Shown piece after piece: positions 4,429 to 49,128 of a stretch of 64,000 nt of DNA (position 1 is the first letter of the stretch; each line of letters begins with the position of its first letter). The translations under genes were made by a program, and so were the position numbers. The DNA is from an uncultured Gammaproteobacteria bacterium (GTDB lineage: Bacteria; Patescibacteriota; Patescibacteriia; UBA2196; CAYSSY01), in contig CAYSSY010000003.1 of the NCBI GenBank assembly GCA_964434055.1, forward strand, positions 10,372 through 74,371, in the 5' to 3' direction. The notes under the pieces are model-generated. The model was given only the letters and a program-made list of their open reading frames with translations, ran no database searches and was not told the DNA's origin.

Positions 4429-5286
4429 TTATTTTTTAACTTGACCAAAGAAAAATAACGCATAATTCTTGGTGAAAAAGAAATTATCAGCTTGTTTAAC
4501 CGGCATTAGCTGAAAAAAAACTGTCATGTTTTTTTCCAATACCTCTTTCTCAACAAAAGTATGAATGATGTTGCTACGAAACCACCACATGGCGTCAAAA
4601 GCTTTTTGTGAAAGCTCACCTTTTTTATAATATAAATACAAATGATCAAACAATTTTTTCATATATAAACGACATTGCTTTCTATTGTAAATCTTAGGTT
4701 TTAGCTCACTGTTAATATAGAGTGATAAGAACATGTCAAACCAATGAGATACACCACGATCGAATTTTTGGGTTATTTTTTTGACCGAATCTGGCGCAAT
4801 CTTTGAATTAAAAACAAATTCCCTAATAATCAAATAACCATCTTTTTTTAAAAGCCGATGATTTTCTTTAAAAAAACGGCTGTGATCTTTAACACTGATA
4901 TTATTAGTGACGCCGTCGCCAATGACAACATCAAAAGAATTATCAGCTAAACCAGATTCCAACCAATCGCCAATAATTATTTTTTCTTTTTTATGACCAG
5001 CATATCTCATGAGTTTATTGCATTTCACAATCATATCAGTGCTAACGTCAAGAGTAACTAAACTACCACCTAATTCTAAAACCAAATCCCTAATTTCCGG
5101 CGTTGCCCCTAGAACTAAAGCTTTGAAATGCTTTTTATTTTTAACAGCTTTCATTATAAGCTCTCGGTAAACAGCGATAATACCTTTCGCGGCTGATGGT
5201 GCACCTGGATAATTTGAGCGCTCCATAGTTCTTTGATCAGCAATTTTATCCCGCCATTCTTTTTGTTTTCTTTTAGTTATTGACAT
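4429..5286 (-). CDS. Paralog 2 of the same family
   Basis: It carries ALVLGATPEIRDLV, VTLDVSTDM, FDVVIGDGVTNNI and LLKKDGYLIIRE. The ATG is at 5286. Confidence 0.6.
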   Translation of the reverse strand: MSITKRKQKEWRDKIADQRTMERSNYPGAPSAAKGIIAVYRELIMKAVKNKKHFKALVLGATPEIRDLVLELGGSLVTLDVSTDMIVKCNKLMRYAGHKKEKIIIGDWLESGLADNSFDVVIGDGVTNNISVKDHSRFFKENHRLLKKDGYLIIREFVFNSKIAPDSVKKITQKFDRGVSHWFDMFLSLYINSELKPKIYNRKQCRLYMKKLFDHLYLYYKKGELSQKAFDAMWWFRSNIIHTFVEKEVLEKNMTVFFQLMPVKQADNFFFTKNYALFFFGQVKK

Positions 5287-18784: not shown

Positions 18785-19214
18785 TAAACTGGAATAATTT
18801 TTTTCCTCACAATCTTGGATTACTGTCAATTTTTATATAAAATAAAAAACTAGTAGTATCATATCCCTACTAGTATTTATGTAGAGCTCTGTCACTCCTG
18901 TGTTAAATCCTTTAATGCTTTTTCTAGCCTTAAAACAGTAACCTTATCTTTAGCGGAATGAGGTGATTCTTTAAATTTTTTTGTAACCTTTTCAGGATGT
19001 TTGTTACAAATATGACCAAAGAGCCATTCTCAAACACCGCTCTCTTTGTTACAATAAGGACACTTCTCACCCATTTTTGATTACTCCTCTATTAAAGTAC
19101 TTAATTATATTGATAATACTCTTCATATAATATGTCAATATTATTTGGCAATTTGACAAACCTTTAAACCATATTCTAAAATTAAGTCACGAGTAAATTT
19201 TTTACAAATTTATA

Positions 19215-19350
19215 CACAGGCCTTTCCGGTGGTCCATCGGAAAAAATAATCAGGGAAAGCGGTGTAAATCCGCTGCTGTGCCGCAACTGTAACTCTGCCC
19301 ATATTTTGTGGATAAATATGTGAAGAGAAGCCAGATGACTGATACTGTGT
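19215..19350 (+). promoter_or_regulatory. cobalamin (B12) riboswitch aptamer
   Basis: The segment AATCAGGGAAAGCGGTGTAAATCCGCTGCTGTGCCGCAACTGTAA matches the conserved cobalamin-riboswitch core (GGGAA..GGTG.AA.TCC...GC.G..CCGC.ACTGTAA). A downstream GAAGCCAGATGACTG segment is also present. It lies in the 5' leader of the 19437 gene. Confidence 0.65.
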
Positions 19351-19404
19351 TTTATTAACTAATAACTCTTCGAGCTAAAGAGTTTAGGTTTTTATGCCTA
19401 ATCA

Positions 19405-19436
19405 TCCGCCCTCAAAAGAGTGGGATTTTTTATTTT
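19405..19436 (+). terminator. Putative riboswitch expression-platform terminator hairpin
   Basis: The hairpin CCCTCAAAAGAGTGGG (bulged stem) is followed by ATTTTTTATTTT and ends just before the ATG at 19437. Confidence 0.4.
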
Positions 19437-21218
19437 ATGAAAAAAACTCTAAATTTTTTCCTAATTGGTATTATTCTGACAATGCCACTTTTTTCATCAG
19501 CAATCAATGTCACGACTGAATCAATAACTTATTTAAAAAGTAAAACCAATAATCCTTGGGTAACGATGGCTTTAGTGGCGGCGGGTGAAAATACTGGTAA
19601 TGTTGATTATCTAAAAAATGTCACTGAAACTGAAGCTGTCAAATTAGCAGCACCTATTTTAGCAATAACAGCACTTGGGCAAGATCCGAGATCTTTTGGT
19701 GCACAAAATTTAGTCTCTCAGTTAAAAAAAACATATAAACAAAATCAACTGGGTGATACTGCCACCATGAATGATGATATTTTTGGTTTGTTGGCCCTTG
19801 TGTCAGCTGGCGAAAATAACGAGGACTTGGTCGTGAATGGTACTAAAAATTTTATTCTTAATCACCAAAACAGCGATGGCGGCTGGGGCTTTCAAGTTAA
19901 TGGTTCATCAGATACCAACATGACTGCCATGGCAATTATGGCCTTAATAAAAGCTGGTGAAGATGGTGAGAAGATTAATCAGGCTGTAAATTATTTAAAA
20001 AATTCACAAAATAATGACGGTGGTTTTCCATATGATAAATCAAGCACTTGGAGTTCAGTCTCCGATGCTTCTTCCGATGCTTGGGTAATTTCCGCTATCT
20101 ATTGTCTGGGACAAGATCCATATAATTGGACGAAAAACGGAAAAAACCCAGTTGATCATTTAAAATCATTACTAGCTAATGAAGGCTACTTTCATTATCA
20201 AACAGGAAGTAATGAAGACTCATTTTCTACCATCACTACTGCTTATGCCGTGATTGCTTTGTCTGGAAAATATTATCCAATTAACACAATTAACGTTAGA
20301 CTAAAAGAATATGCTTTCCGTATTGAAGGCTCTAGTGAGACTATTTGTAGCGGTCAAATCGGGGCAGTAACTGCGCTTGATATTGTAAAAAATGCTCAAG
20401 AAATCTGCAGCTTCAATTATCTAATTGAAAATATGAGTTTCGGACCTTATTTAAAAAAAATAAACACTGATGAAGCACAGGGTTTAAAAGGCTGGCTTTA
20501 TTTAGTCAACTATAATTCACCCACAGTTGGCGCCGCTGATTATCAACTTCAAGAAAATGACGAGGTAATCTGGTTCTATGGTGAGTGGACTGATCAACCG
20601 CTTAAGATAAGCGTTGATAAAACCGAGGTTGGACAAAATGAAAATATCACAGCCACGGTCAACTTTTTTAGTCAATCTGGTTGGCAACCACTAACCGGCG
20701 CTCAAATCTTAGATAAAGTTACAGATAGTAGTGGTCAAACCATTCTATCGTTCACTGATGGCTATTATCGATTATCAGCCAAAAAAAATGGCTTCATAAG
20801 AAGTAATCAAATTAATTTAAAAGTCGGCAATCCTCAAGAAAATTCAGTCTCATTAAAAGTTGAGATTGAAAAGGGCCAAGTTGCTGGCGATGAAACCAAT
20901 GGTTCAGGAACAATTTCATTCTCTGTTGAACCAAATGAGTTAAACTTTGGTAAGTTAAAAAACGGCGCTAACAGTTCCCAAAAACTAAAAATAACTAACA
21001 ATGGCAGCACCGCCATGCATATTGAAGCTAAGGTGGACGGTGATGAACTTTTTCGCAATAACTTACAGCTTAATGATAAGTTCTGGCTTTACTTTTCTGA
21101 AAATTTAGAACAAAATCAAAATCGCGATATTACCGCACAATTGTCAGTTCCAGCAAGCTATGGTGGTAGTGCTGGTTCCAAGCAAGGTGCTCTCATTTTT
21201 TGGGCGATGGCACAGTAA
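19437..21218 (+). CDS. Secreted cobalamin-binding-like protein: alpha/alpha-toroid (prenyltransferase/squalene-oxidase-like 'DGGWG' repeats) + DUF4430-like beta domain + C-terminal Ig-like region (transcobalamin/intrinsic-factor-like architecture)
   Basis: It has a signal peptide and repeats NSDGGWGFQVNGSSDTNMTAMAIMALIKAG and NNDGGFPYDKSS...SSDAWVISAIYCLG. A segment GWLYLVNYNSPTVGAADYQLQENDEVIWFYGEW matches the DUF4430 pattern (W.YxVNG...Y.L..GD.I.W.Y). It is under the B12 riboswitch. Confidence 0.55.
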   Translation: MKKTLNFFLIGIILTMPLFSSAINVTTESITYLKSKTNNPWVTMALVAAGENTGNVDYLKNVTETEAVKLAAPILAITALGQDPRSFGAQNLVSQLKKTYKQNQLGDTATMNDDIFGLLALVSAGENNEDLVVNGTKNFILNHQNSDGGWGFQVNGSSDTNMTAMAIMALIKAGEDGEKINQAVNYLKNSQNNDGGFPYDKSSTWSSVSDASSDAWVISAIYCLGQDPYNWTKNGKNPVDHLKSLLANEGYFHYQTGSNEDSFSTITTAYAVIALSGKYYPINTINVRLKEYAFRIEGSSETICSGQIGAVTALDIVKNAQEICSFNYLIENMSFGPYLKKINTDEAQGLKGWLYLVNYNSPTVGAADYQLQENDEVIWFYGEWTDQPLKISVDKTEVGQNENITATVNFFSQSGWQPLTGAQILDKVTDSSGQTILSFTDGYYRLSAKKNGFIRSNQINLKVGNPQENSVSLKVEIEKGQVAGDETNGSGTISFSVEPNELNFGKLKNGANSSQKLKITNNGSTAMHIEAKVDGDELFRNNLQLNDKFWLYFSENLEQNQNRDITAQLSVPASYGGSAGSKQGALIFWAMAQ

Positions 21219-21352
21219 AAAAATGCGAATATAAAAATAAAAAACTATGAGTTTTCATTTTTAACTGTCGTGGCTCTGTCATGACCTCGCAGACTGCGGG
21301 ATAACAGTGAAATGGTCATTCTAATATTTAATTTTTCACTTTAAATTTATTT

Positions 21353-21883
21353 ATGTCTTCATGTAAATATTTAACTAGATACTTGATATTTCTGCTGCTC
21401 CTATTACCATTGTTGACTAAGGCTGCCGGCTTAGCCGTTACGCCAGCAAAAGTCAATTTAGAGATGACTACTGGCCAAGAAAAAAATGTCTCACTCGAAG
21501 TTGAAAACACCAGCAGTAATGTTAATCTCTATGACGTCTGGCTAGACGACGAATTTAATTTTATTAAAATTACCCCTCAAAGTTTTACCTTAGAAAGTGG
21601 GGAAAAGAAAAAGATAAACCTTATTATTACCGGAGAAAGAGAACTGAGTTTAGCCACAACAATTTCGATTATTGGCCGACCGCTTGGCATTCAAGAATTC
21701 AATTTAACGCCGGGCATAAAAATTCCGCTTAGTATAAGCATCGCCCCCCAACAAAAAAAACTAATAAATGAGTATCTTATCTATACTATCTTAAGTTTAA
21801 TGGTCCTGACTGTTGTTGTGTGGCTCATAATACTGACACGTCTTAAAACAAAGAAAAAAACGAAAAACTTATTTTTAAATTAA
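21353..21883 (+). CDS. hypothetical exported protein with a C-terminal TM anchor
   Basis: It is 176 aa with a signal peptide, a beta-rich middle region and a C-terminal TM helix plus a basic tail (LSLMVLTVVVWLIILTRLKTKKKTKN). It lies downstream of the B12-binding-like gene on the same strand. Confidence 0.45.
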   Translation: MSSCKYLTRYLIFLLLLLPLLTKAAGLAVTPAKVNLEMTTGQEKNVSLEVENTSSNVNLYDVWLDDEFNFIKITPQSFTLESGEKKKINLIITGERELSLATTISIIGRPLGIQEFNLTPGIKIPLSISIAPQQKKLINEYLIYTILSLMVLTVVVWLIILTRLKTKKKTKNLFLN

Positions 21884-23526: not shown

Positions 23527-24960
23527 TTAATTTAAGACATCTAAATTAACACATAACTGATCCTGCCAGATCATCTCTGGATAGCTCCTCAGAATATCTC
23601 TCGTGTACAACCTCCTTTTTTCATAAGTTACCTCATCTTTAGCCTCAAATTTGACGGTAATATAGGGACCATTTTGGGAATAGCGAAAAACCATCATACC
23701 GTCTTTGAAATCAGCGCGCACACCGTCATCACCAGGTATAATTGAATCATCAGTAATCTCAGCGTCCTGAAAATCATTTTTAAACCTAACAGCTAAATTT
23801 TTAATAACATCCTTTTTCTTGTCATCAGGACAACCAATTTTTATCTCTGGTGACGAAATGTATCTGGGAAATTTATCAACTAAATTGGCTAGGGAAATCT
23901 TTTTTTCTGATAAATATTCTAAAACTCTCAGTGCAGCGTAACAGCCATCATCATGACCATAAGCATTATCAGCGAAAAAGAAATGACCGGAGAGTTCACC
24001 GCCAAAAGCCGCTTTTTCTGTAGCAATTTTACTTTTAATAAATGAATGACCAGTACGCCAAATTATTGGTTGACCACCCTCCTGTAAAATAACCTCCCGG
24101 ACCACCTGGGAACATAAAGTATTATAAATAATTTTCGATTTTGGAAATCTTTCCAAAATTTCTTTGGCAAAAATTGCCACCAAAACATCGTTCCATAAAA
24201 TTCTTCCTTTTGAATCAACAACCCCTAAGCGATCACCATCGCCGTCAAAGGCAAAACCTAAATCAGCCCCCTCTTTTAGAACTTCTTCGCCTAAACTCTT
24301 CATATATTTTTCATCGGTTGGATCAGGCGTGCCTTTAGGGAAACTACCATCAACCTCTAAATTTTTGCCAATGACCTGACACTTGGCTTTCTTAAAAATA
24401 TCAACCACAAATAGACCAGTGGTCCCATGCCGGCCATCAATTACAATTTTATATTTTTTCTTAATAGCTACCCTTTTGAGTAAATCATGGATATAGTCTT
24501 TTTTGATGTCTTTCTTAACTAACTTTCCAATTTTTTTACTGATAAAAAAATTCTCCTGTTCAACATAAGATCTAATTTCCTGAACGTCATCCTCCATGGT
24601 TGTCTGCGAATAACCAACACCTAATTTGAAGCCATTAAAATTATAGGGATTATGCGAAGCGGTCATAATCGCCCCACCATTAGTCTGAAAACGATATTGA
24701 CCATAATACATCATTTGAGTCATGATCATCCCTAAATCAATAATATCGACACCGGTTGAGAGTAAACCCCTGATAAAAGCCGGTAAATATTCTTCGCCAC
24801 TTAAACGGCAGTCACGTCCAACAACCGCCTGTTTAATTTTGCGACGCTTTAAAAAAGTACCGAAAGCTTTGCCTATGACTTCCATTTTTTCGACGTCAAA
24901 ATCTTTACCCGCCTCACCGCGGATATCATAATTTCTAAAAACAAAAGGATTTATCTGCAT
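23527..24960 (-). CDS. phosphohexomutase (phosphoglucomutase/phosphomannomutase family)
   Basis: It carries the active-site Ser loop MTASHNPYNFNGFK, the metal-binding loop FAFDGDGDR and the sugar-binding region GGELSGH. Confidence 0.85.
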   Translation of the reverse strand: MQINPFVFRNYDIRGEAGKDFDVEKMEVIGKAFGTFLKRRKIKQAVVGRDCRLSGEEYLPAFIRGLLSTGVDIIDLGMIMTQMMYYGQYRFQTNGGAIMTASHNPYNFNGFKLGVGYSQTTMEDDVQEIRSYVEQENFFISKKIGKLVKKDIKKDYIHDLLKRVAIKKKYKIVIDGRHGTTGLFVVDIFKKAKCQVIGKNLEVDGSFPKGTPDPTDEKYMKSLGEEVLKEGADLGFAFDGDGDRLGVVDSKGRILWNDVLVAIFAKEILERFPKSKIIYNTLCSQVVREVILQEGGQPIIWRTGHSFIKSKIATEKAAFGGELSGHFFFADNAYGHDDGCYAALRVLEYLSEKKISLANLVDKFPRYISSPEIKIGCPDDKKKDVIKNLAVRFKNDFQDAEITDDSIIPGDDGVRADFKDGMMVFRYSQNGPYITVKFEAKDEVTYEKRRLYTRDILRSYPEMIWQDQLCVNLDVLN

Positions 24961-24964
24961 AAAA

Positions 24965-26398
24965 TTAATTTTTATTTAACTTATAAAATAACTCTTTACC
25001 TTTTTGTAAAATTTCCCCAGCTGTTTTTTTATCAGCAGCACCAGCAATAATTCTAAAAAGTCCAACCTCGGTCTGCGAACCGCGGAAAAAAAGCCAAGTA
25101 TTCTGATTATAGTAAATTTTTAAACCACCAGAACAACCTCTAAAATATTTTAGCTGTGGCTCATATTTTCTAAAATAATGAACAATCTTATCAATTATCT
25201 GTTGATTGTCTCCTATTCGACCAATGACTCCAGTTCGCACTTCATAAAATTCAGGATACTCAGCAACTAGTTCGGTTAATGATTTTTTTTCTTCAGCCAT
25301 TAAAGAAATAATCAGCAATAGTGACAGTAAACCATCGCGACAAGTTGTACCACGGACAATAACTCCACCATTACTACCTTCGCCGCCAATCGGACTTTTT
25401 AAATCTCTCATCTTTTCAACCACGTTTGTCTCTCCAACATCAACTTCAACAATTTTAGCATGATATTTTTTGGCTATCATTTTAACAACTGGTAGTGTTG
25501 GTAAATTGGAAACGACTGTTGATCTTTTATCGTGACAATGTCTTAAATAACTATCAACACATAAAGCTAAACTGTAATGACCGCAGACAATATGGCCACG
25601 CTTTCTTGAAAAATTATTTGTTGGTAAAACAAATTCTGCTCGATCAGCATCACAATCAAAACCTACTCCCAAGTTTGCTTGGCAACGATCGACATCTTCA
25701 ACTAGTTTAATTAAAGTTTCGGAATTCGGTTCTATCTTTCTTTTAAAAATCCCAATTTTTGTATTAATGCCAATATACTTAAGTTCTAATTTCTTAAATA
25801 ATGGCGCCACAATTACACTGGCCGCTCCGCCATTAGGATCAACAACAATTTTGAAACCTGATTTTTTAATTAGACGCAGTCGCCTTAAGCCAATAATTTT
25901 AAAAACATCAGTCAAATATTTCTTTCTGATGTCCTTTTCTTTATTAATCACATTACCTTTTTTAACTAAAAAAATCGTCTCACCCGAAGAATTGTGAGCT
26001 GACTTAATAACCAAAGCTGCTTCACGTTCAGTTAAAATTCCCCCGTTTTTTTGCAATAACTTAAAACCATTATAATGCGGCTCATTATGAGAAGCAGTAA
26101 TAATAATACCACCTTGAGCTTTATAAACACGCACAGCTAATTGTACCATTGGCGTTGTTGCTATACCAACATCAACAATATCAATTCCAAGACTAATCAA
26201 CTCAGTCTTTAAAATTTTGTTTACTAATTCACCTGATGGCCGAGAATCGCGTCCGACAACTATTTTAACGTGCTGATTTTTTTTTCTCAAATATTCGGCA
26301 TAAGCCCGGGCATAGCCAACTATTATTTGCCGATTAAAACTTTGACCAAAGATGCCGCGCACCCCCGACAACGATTCAACTAAAAAATCTTGTGACAT
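24965..26398 (-). CDS. phosphohexomutase (GlmM/ManB-type paralog)
   Basis: It carries the ITASHNEPHYNGFK active-site loop and GVGFDCDADR metal loop. It is the second member of a tandem pair. Confidence 0.8.
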   Translation of the reverse strand: MSQDFLVESLSGVRGIFGQSFNRQIIVGYARAYAEYLRKKNQHVKIVVGRDSRPSGELVNKILKTELISLGIDIVDVGIATTPMVQLAVRVYKAQGGIIITASHNEPHYNGFKLLQKNGGILTEREAALVIKSAHNSSGETIFLVKKGNVINKEKDIRKKYLTDVFKIIGLRRLRLIKKSGFKIVVDPNGGAASVIVAPLFKKLELKYIGINTKIGIFKRKIEPNSETLIKLVEDVDRCQANLGVGFDCDADRAEFVLPTNNFSRKRGHIVCGHYSLALCVDSYLRHCHDKRSTVVSNLPTLPVVKMIAKKYHAKIVEVDVGETNVVEKMRDLKSPIGGEGSNGGVIVRGTTCRDGLLSLLLIISLMAEEKKSLTELVAEYPEFYEVRTGVIGRIGDNQQIIDKIVHYFRKYEPQLKYFRGCSGGLKIYYNQNTWLFFRGSQTEVGLFRIIAGAADKKTAGEILQKGKELFYKLNKN

Positions 26399-44424: not shown

Positions 44425-47400
44425 TTATTTTTTTTCTACTTTTCGCCAAGCTTGTGCCTCAATAGTTGGGTGAACCTTGCCTGGGCCTTTCTTAATAGTG
44501 TCATATATCTCTTCCGGAGTATAACCACCATAAACATAGGCATTCACTAGTTTGTACCAATAGCGCGGTGAAACATAGATTGGCCTGTTATTATTCAATT
44601 TTATTAAGGCATCCCAAAGTTCTTCGGCAGCTTCTTGTTCAGTAGTCAAACTACCCAAACGTGATTTGCCGTAGATCATTGTCTTATCTTTGGAAATTTT
44701 TACTGGTTTGGGATAAAGTGGACTATAGCCATTTCTAACCTCAATGCCATCCAAATAAGTATCACTATCAGTATCACTATTTTCTGGATCGGTGCCATAC
44801 CATTCTTCTTGTTGATCACTTAAACCGTCATTATCACTATCGGTAATGAGAGCAGCCCCACTAAGTGTTGGGCTGGTCGACTGATCTTGAAATGTCTCTG
44901 TTGGTTTAGTTACAACTGGTTGAACGACATTAGGAGTTACAACGGGGGTTTCACCAAAAACTTGAGTATTATCATTGTTGGCATCTAAAAACAAAACATA
45001 TTTACCATTCACCCATTGCGTCTTACTTAAAGCAGAATCAACACCTTTGGATAAATCAGACCAGATGAATGCATTACTAATATTGGTATTAATATAAGAC
45101 GCAGGAGCCGGTTCCAAGACAGTTGAAGATGAATCACCAATCATTTTAACTTTAACATAGTAATCATTTGTTTGTTTTACGACCGTACCAACCAATTCAA
45201 ATGTTTTAACAGTGCCGGCTGGAATAACCAGATAACTATCATTAAAATAAACACTGCTATTATTAGTGAGTGGATATTCAATATCAGCAGCAACATCCTT
45301 TAACACCAGATTACTAATAACTATATTCTTCGCATCAAGAATACCAAACATCATCTTGTAAATACCAACATCACCTTTTGCATCTGCTGCTACAGTAAAA
45401 CGGTACAAACTTTGTGTACCATTATTTATGGTTGTCGTAAGTAGACTTTTTTTAGAAACAACCGGCTGTGTCTTAAATAAATAAACCTTATTGCTTTGGA
45501 AAGATCCTTCTTTGTTGGTCGGCGAATAAATCAAACCACTTGTTTTACCCACTGCTACCACATCAACAGCCGCCAGATTTAAGACAAGACCATTACCAGA
45601 AGAAGCCGGACAGTTTTCACCAATACAATTTGTATCACCTTTTAGTGCTAGGGTTTTAACGCTATTACTTGTTATTAATAAACCATTGGGAATTGTTAAA
45701 ATTACTTCACTGGTCGAGGTGGGCACTGCCTCACCCAATTTTGTCGCACCATCATAAAGTGTAATTTTATTAATAACTTTCAACAAATTACCACCATTAA
45801 GACCTTCTGTCTTAAATTTTAAACTTTTGACTTCAATGTTTTCAGATATAGCCTTTAAATCAAAATTACCAAAATTAGAATTTGTGCCACCAGCAGTATA
45901 CAGACCACTTGGTACAGTGGCAGCACTGGTGCTAACAACTAACTTGCCTGTATGACCAATAACAACTTTTGAACCCACTAAAGGATAACTGCCACTAACC
46001 TTGATTTGATTGTTTGAACTATTACCAAAAGCTAAAACAAAAGTATCATTGTCAATGCTTATTTGGTGACTGGTGTTATTTTCAGCGCTTGCCGAAATAT
46101 CAGCGGTTAATTTTAAGGTTTTAATAGTGCCTTTTGCAATTATTAAAGGATTATTAAAAACAAGGACTAGATCACTATAAAGACTATTATTAAATGTTCC
46201 TGATTCTGGTATGTTGAGAACGGTTTGAGTACTAACATCAGTTAAGATAATATTAGATAGATCTGCTTGAATACCCACCTTTGACAACGTATCAGTTAGC
46301 TCTACTTTGGTCACTTTAATATCCTCGCTGGAACTACCAGCATCAAATTTAATTGTAGCTAACAACTTATTTATCTCACCAGCTAGATAATGAATTTCTT
46401 TAGCGGTATCGGTCACGGATACATTCAAACTAGGAACATTTGTAGTACTGGGCAGTTGACAAGTGGCTAACTGGGCGCTATCAGTTAAACAGTCATATTT
46501 TTTATCTATGACACCGCCATTAGTATAGACAATATTTACCGGTGCTGTCACCACTGAGCTACGATTTAAATTGTTTGCCCACAGACCAACCTCAGTAATT
46601 GGATATTTATAATTACCATAAACCAAATAAACCTTATCGGGATCAGAACTATATTTTATTAGTGTCCCGTCAGGATAATTATTATTAATGGCTGTGCCTA
46701 TTAGATAATTAACAAAAAAACTATCAGGCACAGTAACCAAACGAGCACTCCAATTACTCCCATAAAGCTTTGTTAGTTGTTCTGTTGATATTTGATGCAG
46801 TTGCTGCTTAGAACCTACGGCATAGACCGTTGCTGATTGAGGAGTTTTGGCTAAACTAGTACCTGGTCTTAAGACAATATTACCACTTAAGGCATAACTT
46901 TCAGCAACAACAGCACTGACTGTTTTTATTTTAGTCGCATCAACTTGCCAAGAATTCATGACATCCTGCTTGTAATTACTACCCAGAGTATAAGGGAAGA
47001 CATAACGTTTATTATTACTCGCTAAATAATAAACATAGTTTAGGTTATTTTCAATGATAAAAAGATCACCTACTTGCAAAACCTCAACATCTGAACTTTT
47101 TCTTATATAGATTAAAGTATCATAACCCTCTCCATTATCATTCTTAGCTTTGATAGCTAAAGTATGTGTGCCAACTGATAAATTAGTAAAGGTATAGCTA
47201 TGTGTCCCAGCCAGGTACATTGTTCCTTTATAGGTTCCGCTACTGTCAGGAATTTCCGTACTATTGTCAAAAAAGTGTAACGTGGCATTCTGATCTAATT
47301 TAAAGTCAACTTTATAATAATTATTAGTGCCAGAATTTTCCCATAATGGATTAGTTATATCTAATTGCGGCTGATTACCCAGACACTTTTCATACTCATG

Positions 47401-49128
47401 ATTATGATCATCAAAATATGACCAAACACGGCGCTGGGTACCATTAAGATTAGTTTTCCAATCAACATCGTTTTGACCTGGAACATACCACTGAGACCAA
47501 GCACCATTAAACCACTGGATACGATATTTTAGAATTTCCGGATGTTTGGAGATATCAAGCCCTAGAGCTTGAAAGTTATAACCACCAAGTGGCTTCTCAT
47601 TAATAATTGTAGTTCGGCCGGTGGTGCAAGATGGAGATATGACTTCAACATTAACTGCTGTTGCAAAAGTATTATTATTTTCGTTTGATTCACTAACATT
47701 ATCTAGTGGATCAACTGTTATTATTATATTATTGTTACCATATACAAAATAATTATCGCTCTTACTAGTTACATCGACGTTACCAACCACATAAACATGA
47801 CTGATATAATTATTAGGCTCAAAATAATCAAAGTAGAATTGCGAATTAAAAATTTCCTTGTTTAAAGTTGTATTTCTGACAGTTAATAAGAAACTTTGAT
47901 TGGGTTTGACCTGTCCAATATTTGTCAAATCAAATTCAAGTTGGATGTCCCAAGGTTCAATATTGGTTTGTCTTAAATCTGTATATTTGAAATTCTTGAC
48001 TGTTAAATCAGCTTTATAATATTGGCCACCATCAGTAGTAGTGGTAAAGTTATAGACTGAACTTTCAGAATAATTGTTCTCACTTGCGGTACAGATAATC
48101 TTATAATAATATTTTGTACTTGGTAATAAGCCATTCAAATTAGCTGAATATAGATAGTAACCTGTCTCGCCACTTAGCGAACGATTCGTATATAACAAAG
48201 ATGTACCATTACTCAAGTCACTATTCTTACTATATACTACGGAACAATTATATTGACCATTGGCAAACCAGGCTAATGAAGCTGATTCAAAACCAATACT
48301 AATTGAAGTGTCCTTAATCAGTGGTTTTGGCGCACCAATTGTTAATGTTTTGGTCAAAATATTATTATTTTCATTCGATTCAATAACATTATTATCACTG
48401 TCAATCCTAAGTGTGTAAATTAAATCTTGCTGAATTAACGTATCTCGATCGTGAGCTGGTTGTGTTCTAAATTCATAACTTTCGCCCGGTTTTAAATTTA
48501 AAATATTAGACCTCAAACCACTGGTACTATTCTTTTCCATAATAGTAAAATAAAAAGGACCAGTATCTACAGTGCCATTATTTTTAAAAGTAGCAACCAT
48601 CTCTAATATATCATATTGCAACCAAATATCGTTGCTAGGGTGGGTTAAGTTTCTTATTTCTAATTTAATTGGAATTAAATCAGGTTTTGTTCGATTGATA
48701 ACAACTAATTCTTTTGTAATGTTATTATTAGATGTATTAATTTCACCGGCAACATTTTTGATAGTAAGTGTGATCGAATAAGTTCCGGGTTCAGTAAAGT
48801 TATAGTTGGTGGTATAAGTGGTGAAATTGCCGGCATTGATGCCAAAACCATCATTCACATCAAAAATTTCAGTAGCAACCAAATCATTGTTTAAACTGAT
48901 TTCCACCTGAATTGAAAAAATCCCCGAAAAAGAAGTTGTACCAATATTTTGAATTGAAGGGACTAATAAAACTGTATTGTCATTATTGCTGTCAGGGTCA
49001 CTTAATCCAAAACCTGAAAAGATCAGATCTGGAGAAATGTTTATTTCACTAGCACTAATAGATAACGGACTAAAGCCCAATAATATAATAGCAGCAATTA
49101 AGATAAAATATATTTTATTTTTTTTCAT
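44425..49128 (-). CDS. Giant (1567 aa) secreted surface protein with multiple Ig-like/CARDB/fibronectin-III-like domains and C-terminal thrombospondin-type-3-like Ca-binding repeats
   Basis: It has a signal peptide. The mid-region is Asn/Thr/Ser-rich and beta-rich. Near the C-terminus are DxDxDG repeats (TDSDNDGLSDQQEEWYGTDPENSDTDSDTYLDG), followed by a ~70-aa conserved tail. Confidence 0.65.
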   Translation of the reverse strand: MKKNKIYFILIAAIILLGFSPLSISASEINISPDLIFSGFGLSDPDSNNDNTVLLVPSIQNIGTTSFSGIFSIQVEISLNNDLVATEIFDVNDGFGINAGNFTTYTTNYNFTEPGTYSITLTIKNVAGEINTSNNNITKELVVINRTKPDLIPIKLEIRNLTHPSNDIWLQYDILEMVATFKNNGTVDTGPFYFTIMEKNSTSGLRSNILNLKPGESYEFRTQPAHDRDTLIQQDLIYTLRIDSDNNVIESNENNNILTKTLTIGAPKPLIKDTSISIGFESASLAWFANGQYNCSVVYSKNSDLSNGTSLLYTNRSLSGETGYYLYSANLNGLLPSTKYYYKIICTASENNYSESSVYNFTTTTDGGQYYKADLTVKNFKYTDLRQTNIEPWDIQLEFDLTNIGQVKPNQSFLLTVRNTTLNKEIFNSQFYFDYFEPNNYISHVYVVGNVDVTSKSDNYFVYGNNNIIITVDPLDNVSESNENNNTFATAVNVEVISPSCTTGRTTIINEKPLGGYNFQALGLDISKHPEILKYRIQWFNGAWSQWYVPGQNDVDWKTNLNGTQRRVWSYFDDHNHEYEKCLGNQPQLDITNPLWENSGTNNYYKVDFKLDQNATLHFFDNSTEIPDSSGTYKGTMYLAGTHSYTFTNLSVGTHTLAIKAKNDNGEGYDTLIYIRKSSDVEVLQVGDLFIIENNLNYVYYLASNNKRYVFPYTLGSNYKQDVMNSWQVDATKIKTVSAVVAESYALSGNIVLRPGTSLAKTPQSATVYAVGSKQQLHQISTEQLTKLYGSNWSARLVTVPDSFFVNYLIGTAINNNYPDGTLIKYSSDPDKVYLVYGNYKYPITEVGLWANNLNRSSVVTAPVNIVYTNGGVIDKKYDCLTDSAQLATCQLPSTTNVPSLNVSVTDTAKEIHYLAGEINKLLATIKFDAGSSSEDIKVTKVELTDTLSKVGIQADLSNIILTDVSTQTVLNIPESGTFNNSLYSDLVLVFNNPLIIAKGTIKTLKLTADISASAENNTSHQISIDNDTFVLAFGNSSNNQIKVSGSYPLVGSKVVIGHTGKLVVSTSAATVPSGLYTAGGTNSNFGNFDLKAISENIEVKSLKFKTEGLNGGNLLKVINKITLYDGATKLGEAVPTSTSEVILTIPNGLLITSNSVKTLALKGDTNCIGENCPASSGNGLVLNLAAVDVVAVGKTSGLIYSPTNKEGSFQSNKVYLFKTQPVVSKKSLLTTTINNGTQSLYRFTVAADAKGDVGIYKMMFGILDAKNIVISNLVLKDVAADIEYPLTNNSSVYFNDSYLVIPAGTVKTFELVGTVVKQTNDYYVKVKMIGDSSSTVLEPAPASYINTNISNAFIWSDLSKGVDSALSKTQWVNGKYVLFLDANNDNTQVFGETPVVTPNVVQPVVTKPTETFQDQSTSPTLSGAALITDSDNDGLSDQQEEWYGTDPENSDTDSDTYLDGIEVRNGYSPLYPKPVKISKDKTMIYGKSRLGSLTTEQEAAEELWDALIKLNNNRPIYVSPRYWYKLVNAYVYGGYTPEEIYDTIKKGPGKVHPTIEAQAWRKVEKK

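Follow-up and report, generated by a model that had tools for sequence, protein, structure and literature searches.

What controls the gene that begins at position 19437 of this stretch of DNA, and to what would it respond? The window, that is, the whole stretch of 64,000 nucleotides (nt) analysed here, belongs to contig CAYSSY010000003.1 of assembly GCA_964434055.1. An earlier note, made from its letters alone, had proposed that the 5' leader of this gene contains a cobalamin (vitamin B12) riboswitch with a terminator-type expression platform. The present analysis makes it probable that positions 19201-19436 are the leader of a two-gene operon and act as a cobalamin (corrinoid) riboswitch that represses by terminating transcription; of the mechanisms considered, a terminator-type platform has the best support from the sequence evidence.

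The identity of the aptamer was addressed by a cmscan search of the whole window against all 4227 families of Rfam 15 at their gathering thresholds. Apart from two transfer RNAs, a single riboswitch was found, namely a member of RF00174 (Cobalamin) at 19201-19362 on the plus strand, with a score of 40.4 bits against a gathering threshold of 31.5 (E 9e-7) and covering model positions 1-189 of 189. The earlier note had named the lack of a match above this threshold among the results that would refute it, and the element passes that test. The core GGGAAAGCGGTGTAAATCCGCTGCTGTGCCGCAACTGTAA that the earlier note had quoted corresponds to 19253-19292. The helices were taken from the Rfam alignment and every pair was checked, which gave the following parts, two of them seen in the Rfam alignment and the minimum free energy (MFE) fold only and the other helices covarying in orthologous leaders.

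19201 to 19362, plus strand: cobalamin aptamer, the RF00174 match
19214-19219 with 19345-19350, plus strand: helix P1 (Rfam alignment and MFE fold only)
19223-19231 with 19235-19243, plus strand: helix P2, 9 base pairs (bp) (Rfam alignment and MFE fold only)
19251, 19253 and 19254 with 19339-19341, plus strand: helix P3 (covaries)
19258-19262 with 19270-19274, plus strand: helix P4, which closes the T-loop-like L4 (covaries)
19277-19278 with 19284-19285, plus strand: helix P5, which closes L5 (covaries)
19279 to 19283, plus strand: loop L5, UGCCG, the aptamer half of the kissing loop (pairs checked; compensatory changes across orthologs)
19288-19289 with 19332-19333, plus strand: helix P6 (covaries)
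19293-19296 with 19324-19327, plus strand: helix P7 of the short P6 extension (covaries)
19300-19306 with 19314-19320, plus strand: helix P8 of the short P6 extension (covaries)
19329 to 19341, plus strand: B12 box AGCCAGAUGACUG, aligned to the RF00174 consensus AGCCAGGAGACCu; it supplies the 3' strands of P6 and P3

The conserved core aligns to the RF00174 consensus in the L4 T-loop (GGUGnnAAnCC), in L5, in the ACUGUAA segment and in the B12 box (AGCCAGnnGAC), and these columns are invariant or nearly so in 18-26 orthologous leaders. Within the B12 box, A126, G127, C129 and G131 (numbering of leader alignment A2) are invariant in 26 leaders. The window leader was found base for base in two other independent public assemblies from different samples (L087 and L088; such labels denote individual related loci), and hence it is not an assembly artefact.

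Like the other members of RF00174, a family of clan CL00101 together with RF01482 (adenosylcobalamin, AdoCbl) and RF01689 (AdoCbl-II), the window element has a T-loop-type L4 (GGUGUAAAUCC), an L5, a B12 box and a four-way junction of P3-P6, and it sits in the leader of a B12-related gene. It departs from the family in its P6 extension, which measures about 35 nt as against a consensus insert of 48 nt. Subclasses are reportedly told apart by the P6 peripheral extension and by P2 as opposed to a J1/3 T-loop (Johnson 2012, Polaski 2017). Given P2 and a short, two-helix P6 extension in the window and mixed features among the orthologs, the sequence does not assign the element to a subclass, that is, to AdoCbl or to methylcobalamin/hydroxocobalamin selectivity. 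The env8 hydroxocobalamin riboswitch reportedly acts on translation through P13 and does so without P2 and a P6 extension. The window RNA is like this class II, translational riboswitch in its bulged kissing loop, a feature described for env8 in PMC10327014, and RF01482, which models the env8 type, is the best-scoring family for three orthologous leaders; unlike env8, it has a P2 of 9 bp, a short P6 extension and a downstream terminator. The L5 sequence is UGCCG in the window, compared with the consensus UCCCG quoted in PMC10327014.

These structures were then compared with those of related loci. The protein encoded at 19437 (gene 1 below) has 670 homologs at E<=1e-5, and the named ones all come from Patescibacteria. 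When one genome for each GTDB species was scanned by alignment, 80 loci with an ortholog were obtained. When 16 loci were scanned with Rfam, a riboswitch of the cobalamin clan was found above the gathering threshold directly 5' of the ortholog in nine (RF00174 in five, RF01482 in three and RF01689 in one). In MAFFT alignments of the leaders (A2, A3), the core was well aligned and P1/P2, P3, the P6 extension and the 3' arm of P13 were not structure-consistent; hence, a single-sequence covariance model was built from the window instead. It covers 19248-19388, from P3 to the hairpin P13 described below, in a hand-checked structure from which the pseudoknot, P1 and P2 were left out. The model matches 60 of the 80 orthologous loci at E<=1. 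All matches lie just 5' of the ortholog except three, which are a second plus-strand copy in each of L067 and L069 and a minus-strand copy in L054, and a loose L5 motif adds about a dozen further loci. The earlier note had regarded riboswitches as rarely catalogued in genomes of the Patescibacteria type; this does not hold for the gene 1 family, as the same riboswitch was found at no fewer than 60 of 80 species-level loci.

Base pairs of the nested structure and of the kissing loop were counted in the 46 best-aligned leaders, in an alignment that had been fitted to the nested structure without the kissing loop. It was found that 92.9% of cells were paired compared with 70.4% in column shuffles, a value reached by none of 500 shuffles, and that the covariation score was 0.441, whereas the shuffles gave 0.146 and alignments with the 3' partners slid by 1-3 columns gave no more than 0.115. 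P3, P4, P5 and P6 were paired in 94%, 97%, 100% and 100% of cases, with both-side changes in every helix, so that the P3-P6 junction is supported. The P13 stem was paired in 90%, and all seven of its pairs covary. For the kissing loop the figure was 93.3%, with compensatory changes at two of the five pairs; this covariation carries weight because the loop was absent from the model that made the alignment. The variant pairings are listed here by locus.

L044, L051 and L069 (twice): L5 AUCCG with L13 CGAGAU
L054, L067 and L021: L5 UCCCG with L13 CGAGG
L048: L5 UACCG with L13 CGAGUA
L025, L016 and L043: L5 GGCCG with L13 CGAGCC or CGAGUC
L078: L5 UCCUAG with L13 CUAAGGA

The P6 extension varies among the orthologs from absent to more than 100 nt. 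Every test run on the sequence places the window RNA in the cobalamin riboswitch family, and the aptamer that the earlier note had placed in the leader of the gene at 19437 is borne out by the score above threshold and by the covariation of junction helices and kissing loop.

The next question is how binding at this aptamer could be passed on to the gene. Four elements were found in the segment between the aptamer and the start codon.

19364 to 19384, plus strand: hairpin P13 (AACUCUU with AAGAGUU), with loop L13, CGAGCUA, at 19371-19377; in orthologs, a hairpin with a loop of the CGAGC type likewise stands just 3' of the aptamer
19385 to 19400, plus strand: spacer hairpin H2 (UAGGU with GCCUA), situated after P13 and ahead of the terminator in MFE folds; putatively the top of the antiterminator
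19404 to 19436, plus strand: terminator-like element, a bulged hairpin (19404-19413 with 19418-19426) followed by a U-run (19427-19436); seen in MFE folds and with equivalents in orthologs
19365 to 19421, plus strand: predicted antiterminator, 19365-19370 with 19416-19421 and 19372-19374 with 19411-19413 (computational)

L13 can pair with L5 through C19371-G19283, G19372-C19282, G19374-C19281 and C19375-G19280, which makes four G-C pairs with A19373 bulged. The terminator-like hairpin, AUCCGCCCUC-AAAA-GAGUGGGAU at 19404-19426, has one bulged G (G19408) and one 1x1 mismatch, and the U-run UUUUUUAUUUU (10 U in 11 nt) extends up to the ATG at 19437. The earlier note had correctly seen a bulged hairpin and a U-run directly before the start codon. 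The platform is more elaborate than it had described, as it had overlooked P13 and L13, and the elements now include the spacer hairpin and an antiterminator that would compete with the kissing loop for L13.

These elements suggest a mechanism in which binding of a corrinoid to the aptamer (19214-19350) would bring L5 (UGCCG) into kissing contact with L13 (CG-A-GC). The kissing loop would lock P13 (19364-19384), which is otherwise marginal and amounts to only -4.3 kcal/mol on its own. Once P13 is locked, the bulged hairpin 19404-19426 would form before the U-run and RNA polymerase would stop just ahead of the ATG at 19437. Without ligand, the 5' arm of P13 and L13 (19365-19374) would pair with 19411-19421, and this antiterminator pairing would block the terminator and allow the operon to be transcribed. 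The switch would be a kinetic one, the availability of L13 being set by the kissing loop, and proteins for B12 capture would be made only when intracellular B12 is low.

An architecture of this repressing kind was dissected by mutagenesis in the metE leader of Priestia megaterium (Kennedy et al. 2023, PMC10327014). In that leader, P13 is stabilised by the kissing loop, and otherwise an antiterminator forms that is topped by a structured spacer between P13 and the terminator. The window leader resembles the metE switch in an L5-L13 contact that would lock P13, in a structured spacer, in a separate terminator and in an antiterminator expected when P13 is unlocked. Unlike metE, its kissing loop has a bulged A and four to five pairs. 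A further difference lies in the predicted antiterminator, in which the 5' arm of P13 and L13 pair with the terminator's tip, its loop and the initial 4 nt of its 3' arm. This antiterminator comprises 9 bp with a 1x2 internal loop, the duplex being worth -8.4 kcal/mol, and it is the MFE structure of a nascent transcript that ends at 19421, just before the terminator can close. Other partners for the terminator 5' arm came into question as well, namely the L8 loop (GUGGAU/AUCCGC), P4 (GCGGUG/CAUCCGC) and the B12 box (GAUGA/UCAUC), and so did a cascade among three copies of AACUCU and three of AGAG; all were dropped as unsupported matches of 5-6 bp.

Evidence for the platform comes mostly from the orthologs. 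With a terminator finder that accepts stems of -6 kcal/mol or lower and at least 6 U in 8 nt, a terminator-like site was found between the aptamer and the start codon in 47 of 60 orthologous leaders, compared with 18 of 60 reverse complements, 10 of 60 stretches of equal length upstream and 6 of 60 in-gene stretches; the terminator-type platform that the earlier note had put forward gains its support from this enrichment. The 5' half of the ortholog terminator is usually complementary to L13 and the flank of P13. In L022, GAGCAAGG pairs with CCUUGCUC and in L005, CUUCGAG pairs with CUCGAAG; in L085, the one closer relative that proved informative for fine-scale covariation, the P13/L13 segment CUUCGAGCA is complementary over 9 bp to its own terminator UGCUUGAAG. 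In the orthologs, P13/L13 forms a duplex with the terminator 5' half at a mean of -12.3 kcal/mol as against -6.6 kcal/mol after shuffling (mean z -2.66), and z is below -2 in 16 of 27 leaders.

Several observations weigh against a terminating riboswitch in the window itself. The RF00174 score is modest, and several non-canonical pairs were flagged in P1, P2 and the P6 extension. No terminator of the set is weaker than that of the window (-5.6 kcal/mol), and a simple terminator scan did not call the hairpin 19404-19426. In this window of 35% G+C, each strand has about 1.1 comparable sites of a hairpin and a U-run per kb, so that the chance expectation of one such site in the 52-nt gap is about 6%; the window terminator is not significant alone and hence rests on the comparative evidence. 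The test of P13 against the terminator 5' half, which succeeds in the orthologs, fails here (z = +0.17), and the antiterminator emerges only if the terminator 3' arm is taken into account. The antiterminator state (-14.3 kcal/mol) is 1.6 kcal/mol less stable than P13, H2 and the terminator together (-15.9 kcal/mol). P13 forms unaided at equilibrium with a probability of 0.93 and, as it is stable in the equilibrium ensemble, switching must be kinetic. In the annotated parts of the window (about 9.6-31.2 kb and ten large open reading frames (ORFs) elsewhere), no B12-dependent enzyme or membrane transporter was found.

Among the alternatives, a mainly translational switch survives best and is given a small chance. 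On this account, the hairpin 19404-19426, made stable by the ligand in an indirect way, would block ribosome loading or hide GAGUGGGA, the only purine-rich stretch that resembles a Shine-Dalgarno (SD) sequence, and the U-run would be no more than an AU-rich spacer as is usual in this genome. The weakness of the hairpin as a terminator (-5.6 kcal/mol) fits such a role, as does its position, since it ends 10 nt before the AUG and thus lies within the ribosome footprint; hairpin and U-run also directly abut the ATG in the orthologs L005, L067, L069, L066 and L076. Of the 31 gene starts examined in the window (996-61057), almost none has a recognisable SD sequence and the leaders are A/U-rich. The best duplexes with the anti-SD sequence reach -6.2 and -5.5 kcal/mol, the second of these being formed by GAGUGGGAU, and most are weaker than -2 kcal/mol. 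As SD sequences are nearly absent, translation initiation in this organism seems to be largely SD-independent; SD sequestration would meet no general need, and masking of an SD sequence is unconvincing as the primary mechanism. Distance also speaks for termination over occlusion. In many ortholog leaders the hairpin lies 23-356 nt 5' of the start codon, with a separate leader, and the several terminators that are 100-350 nt away cannot act by occlusion of the start site. Moreover, a G+C-rich stem with a U-run (10 U in 11 nt) directly behind it is the signature of an intrinsic terminator, and such sites are 3- to 8-fold enriched over the controls. The translational and the terminating mode are not exclusive.

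Transcription termination under corrinoid control is thus preferred to a mainly translational effect, and it has also to be weighed against the possibility that the aptamer is real and the platform has decayed, which would leave constitutive partial attenuation or no response to B12. This was judged improbable. It would account for a degenerate antiterminator, with CUCAAAAG where relatives have CUCGAAG, for the weak terminator, for the fact that P13 and the terminator 5' half are not complementary in the window as they are in the orthologs (z +0.17, the mean being -2.66) and for a terminated state that is the equilibrium MFE structure. However, when the 3' arm is included, the 9-bp antiterminator is the MFE structure of the nascent transcript, the nucleotides of the aptamer core and of the kissing loop are all intact, and the leader is identical in three assemblies. 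The closest non-identical relative, L082 (66% protein identity), has two G+C-rich hairpins in the approximately 130 nt of leader present on its contig and neither a recognisable P13/L13 nor a U-run in that part; because the contig is cut off, the absence of an aptamer there cannot be judged, and its riboswitch may be either further 5' beyond the contig end or lost or replaced. The leaders of L083 and L084 are only 28-45 nt long.

An activating corrinoid riboswitch of the A. halodurans cobT type, in which the ligand-stabilised P13 would be the antiterminator, is very unlikely: activating switches with the same L5-L13 kissing loop do exist (PMC10327014), but they share the 3' side of P13 with the terminator's 5' side, whereas here 19 nt separate the two hairpins and both are present in the MFE structure, a non-overlapping arrangement that is repressing and not activating, and the regulated genes resemble uptake and capture functions, which are normally repressed by B12.

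With a repressing, terminating riboswitch as the favoured reading of the leader, it can be asked what is being regulated. Two genes follow on the same strand.

19437 to 21218, plus strand: gene 1, 593 residues, with a signal peptide, an alpha/alpha toroid, a DUF4430 domain (SLBB beta-grasp) and C-terminal immunoglobulin-like (Ig-like) beta domains
21353 to 21883, plus strand: gene 2, 176 residues, with a signal peptide, a PapD/Ig-like beta domain and a C-terminal transmembrane anchor

Gene 1 matches Pfam above cut-offs with PF00432/PF13243 (residues 86-198), which are toroid repeats of the prenyltransferase/squalene-cyclase type, and with PF14478, that is, DUF4430 (residues 312-382). In a sequence search of the PDB, residues 310-376 matched the beta domain of human transcobalamin (E 0.009). 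An AlphaFold model built from an alignment of 29 sequences had a mean predicted local distance difference test score of 84.4, and its top 15 Foldseek matches in the PDB were transcobalamin, intrinsic factor and haptocorrin (E 3e-13 to 8e-10), with alignments of about 420 columns that cover both domains; terpene cyclases and prenyltransferases follow at E around 1e-7 with the toroid only. Like these animal carriers, gene 1 combines the toroid and the SLBB domain in one chain, and the fold matches across both. Unlike them, it shares only 14-17% identity, it has about 200 extra C-terminal residues in Ig-like beta domains, and its family is found across Patescibacteria with a dedicated partner of about 180 residues. 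The predicted orientation of the domains also differs from that of holo-transcobalamin (root-mean-square deviation of about 21 A over both domains, template modelling score 0.41). On the strength of the model, gene 1 is best described as a transcobalamin-like, predicted extracellular B12 binder. Secreted bacterial fusions of toroid and SLBB domains, some with added Ig domains, had been predicted to bind B12 outside the cell (Burroughs et al. 2007, PMC1796856), and the link to a B12 riboswitch supports that prediction of bacterial proteins related to animal transcobalamin. The earlier note had taken the element as a pointer to genes that respond to a cofactor supplied from outside, and the transcobalamin-like predicted fold supports this suggestion.

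The N-terminus of gene 1, MKKTLNFFLIGIILTMPLFSSA, resembles a signal peptide as read directly from the sequence, no dedicated predictor being used, and basic-then-hydrophobic N-termini were seen in nearly all of the 77 orthologs with an assigned start. Public gene calls begin at internal methionines and give 550 or 578 residues in place of 593, that is, 43 or 15 codons late (within 19437-19562). With these late starts the signal peptide is lost, and the called start comes to lie 45-126 nt 3' of the riboswitch terminator.

For the PapD/Ig-like domain of gene 2, the Pfam matches were sub-threshold only. By tblastn, 67 of the 80 loci, as well as L083-L085, were found to have a homolog of gene 2 directly 3' of the transcobalamin-like gene; hence, the regulated unit is a conserved two-gene cassette. 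The spacing of the pair differs between loci, with a gap of 134 nt (21219-21352) between gene 1 and its 176-residue partner in the window and a partner that starts 2 nt after the stop codon in L083, L084 and L085.

Related loci carry further genes that may belong to B12 metabolism. The second riboswitch copies are situated at 4156-4259 in L067, at 2523-2654 in L069 and at 4504-4631 on the minus strand in L054. Those of L067 and L054 precede small secreted proteins (136 and 168 residues) with a C-terminal motif that was read by eye as DUF4430-like, and that of L069 precedes a toroid-only protein of 329 residues with a signal resembling the twin-arginine translocation type; the proteins behind the second copies have weak Pfam support (E 0.005 and 0.0013) or none. 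In L054, a clear ATP:corrinoid adenosyltransferase (CobA/CobO/BtuR, E 3e-62) is encoded at 2431-2952, about 2 kb away from the genes under riboswitch control; some at least of these Patescibacteria thus turn the corrinoid that they salvage into its adenosyl form. A polytopic membrane protein of about 174 residues with a DUF6580 match is encoded a few genes downstream in 19 of the 80 loci and likewise in L090, 2.8-3.4 kb past the start of the transcobalamin-like gene and in the same orientation; examples are L090 10793-11317, L016 7861-8379 and L025 7772-8287. In L090, this gene follows a stand-alone DUF4430 gene. The protein, for which no NCBIfam match was obtained, is a candidate membrane component of the B12-capture system. 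In the annotated parts of the window, no DUF6580 homolog, no adenosyltransferase and no genes of the kind found behind the second copies were detected.

As to significance, the riboswitch itself is routine, since it belongs to the most widespread riboswitch class and is found by a standard Rfam scan. Its value is that of independent RNA-level evidence that ties a large protein family of Patescibacteria to B12, a family otherwise annotated only as "prenyltransferase/squalene oxidase repeat" or "DUF4430". The cassette appears to be regulated alike in those 60 or more species-level representatives, which fits a dependence on external corrinoids. It is conceivable, though at present we would rather doubt than assert it, that a riboswitch-governed B12-capture cassette extends across the phylum, in which a secreted homolog of transcobalamin and intrinsic factor is joined by a membrane-anchored, Ig-like partner of about 180 residues and, in about one quarter of the lineages, by a stand-alone DUF4430 protein and DUF6580; this would be an undescribed route by which corrinoids are acquired from the environment or the host cell, and it would differ from BtuBFCD, ECF-CbrT and BtuG/BtuH. 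In an incomplete literature search, no description of cobalamin riboswitches or transcobalamin-like proteins in Patescibacteria was found. It was pointed out in a 2024 review (PMC11665869) that inducible and repressible expression tools are lacking for Patescibacteria. The window leader, as a native element predicted to respond to a small molecule, could be tried for this purpose and, if the cassette reading is true, the riboswitch would be a ready-made, ligand-controlled expression tool native to these hard-to-manipulate organisms.

The surroundings of the leader showed some further features, of which the first is a candidate promoter.

19153 to 19182, plus strand: promoter-like site, TTGACA-18 nt-TAAAAT, with 11 of 12 matches in a consensus scan

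This putative promoter lies about 30 nt 5' of P1, and the transcript start would fall near 19190. Divergent from it, at 18892-19074 on the minus strand, there is an ORF of 60 codons preceded by a strong SD sequence, GAGGAG, which is rare in this genome. Its N-terminus reads like a zinc finger, CxxC...HxxxxH (MGEKCPYCNKESGV*EWLFGHICNKHPE...), and an in-frame TGA at 19030-19032 breaks the ORF; no homolog was found by tblastn in the related loci. The ORF could be a pseudogene, a site of recoding or selenocysteine insertion, or a chance occurrence. The in-frame TGA had raised the idea of an alternative code in which UGA is a sense codon, which was rejected, the long ORFs being intact under table 11. 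Stop codon usage in the window is 35 TAA, 7 TAG and 3 TGA.

Two observations were made further downstream, both on the minus strand. At 23527-24960 and 24965-26398, tandem paralogs of phosphoglucomutase/phosphomannomutase, 477 residues each, are encoded. An ORF of 1567 residues at 44425-49128, which adjoins ftsK and rpoBC and in which only CARDB and purple-acid-phosphatase N-terminal domains were recognised, probably encodes a giant surface protein.

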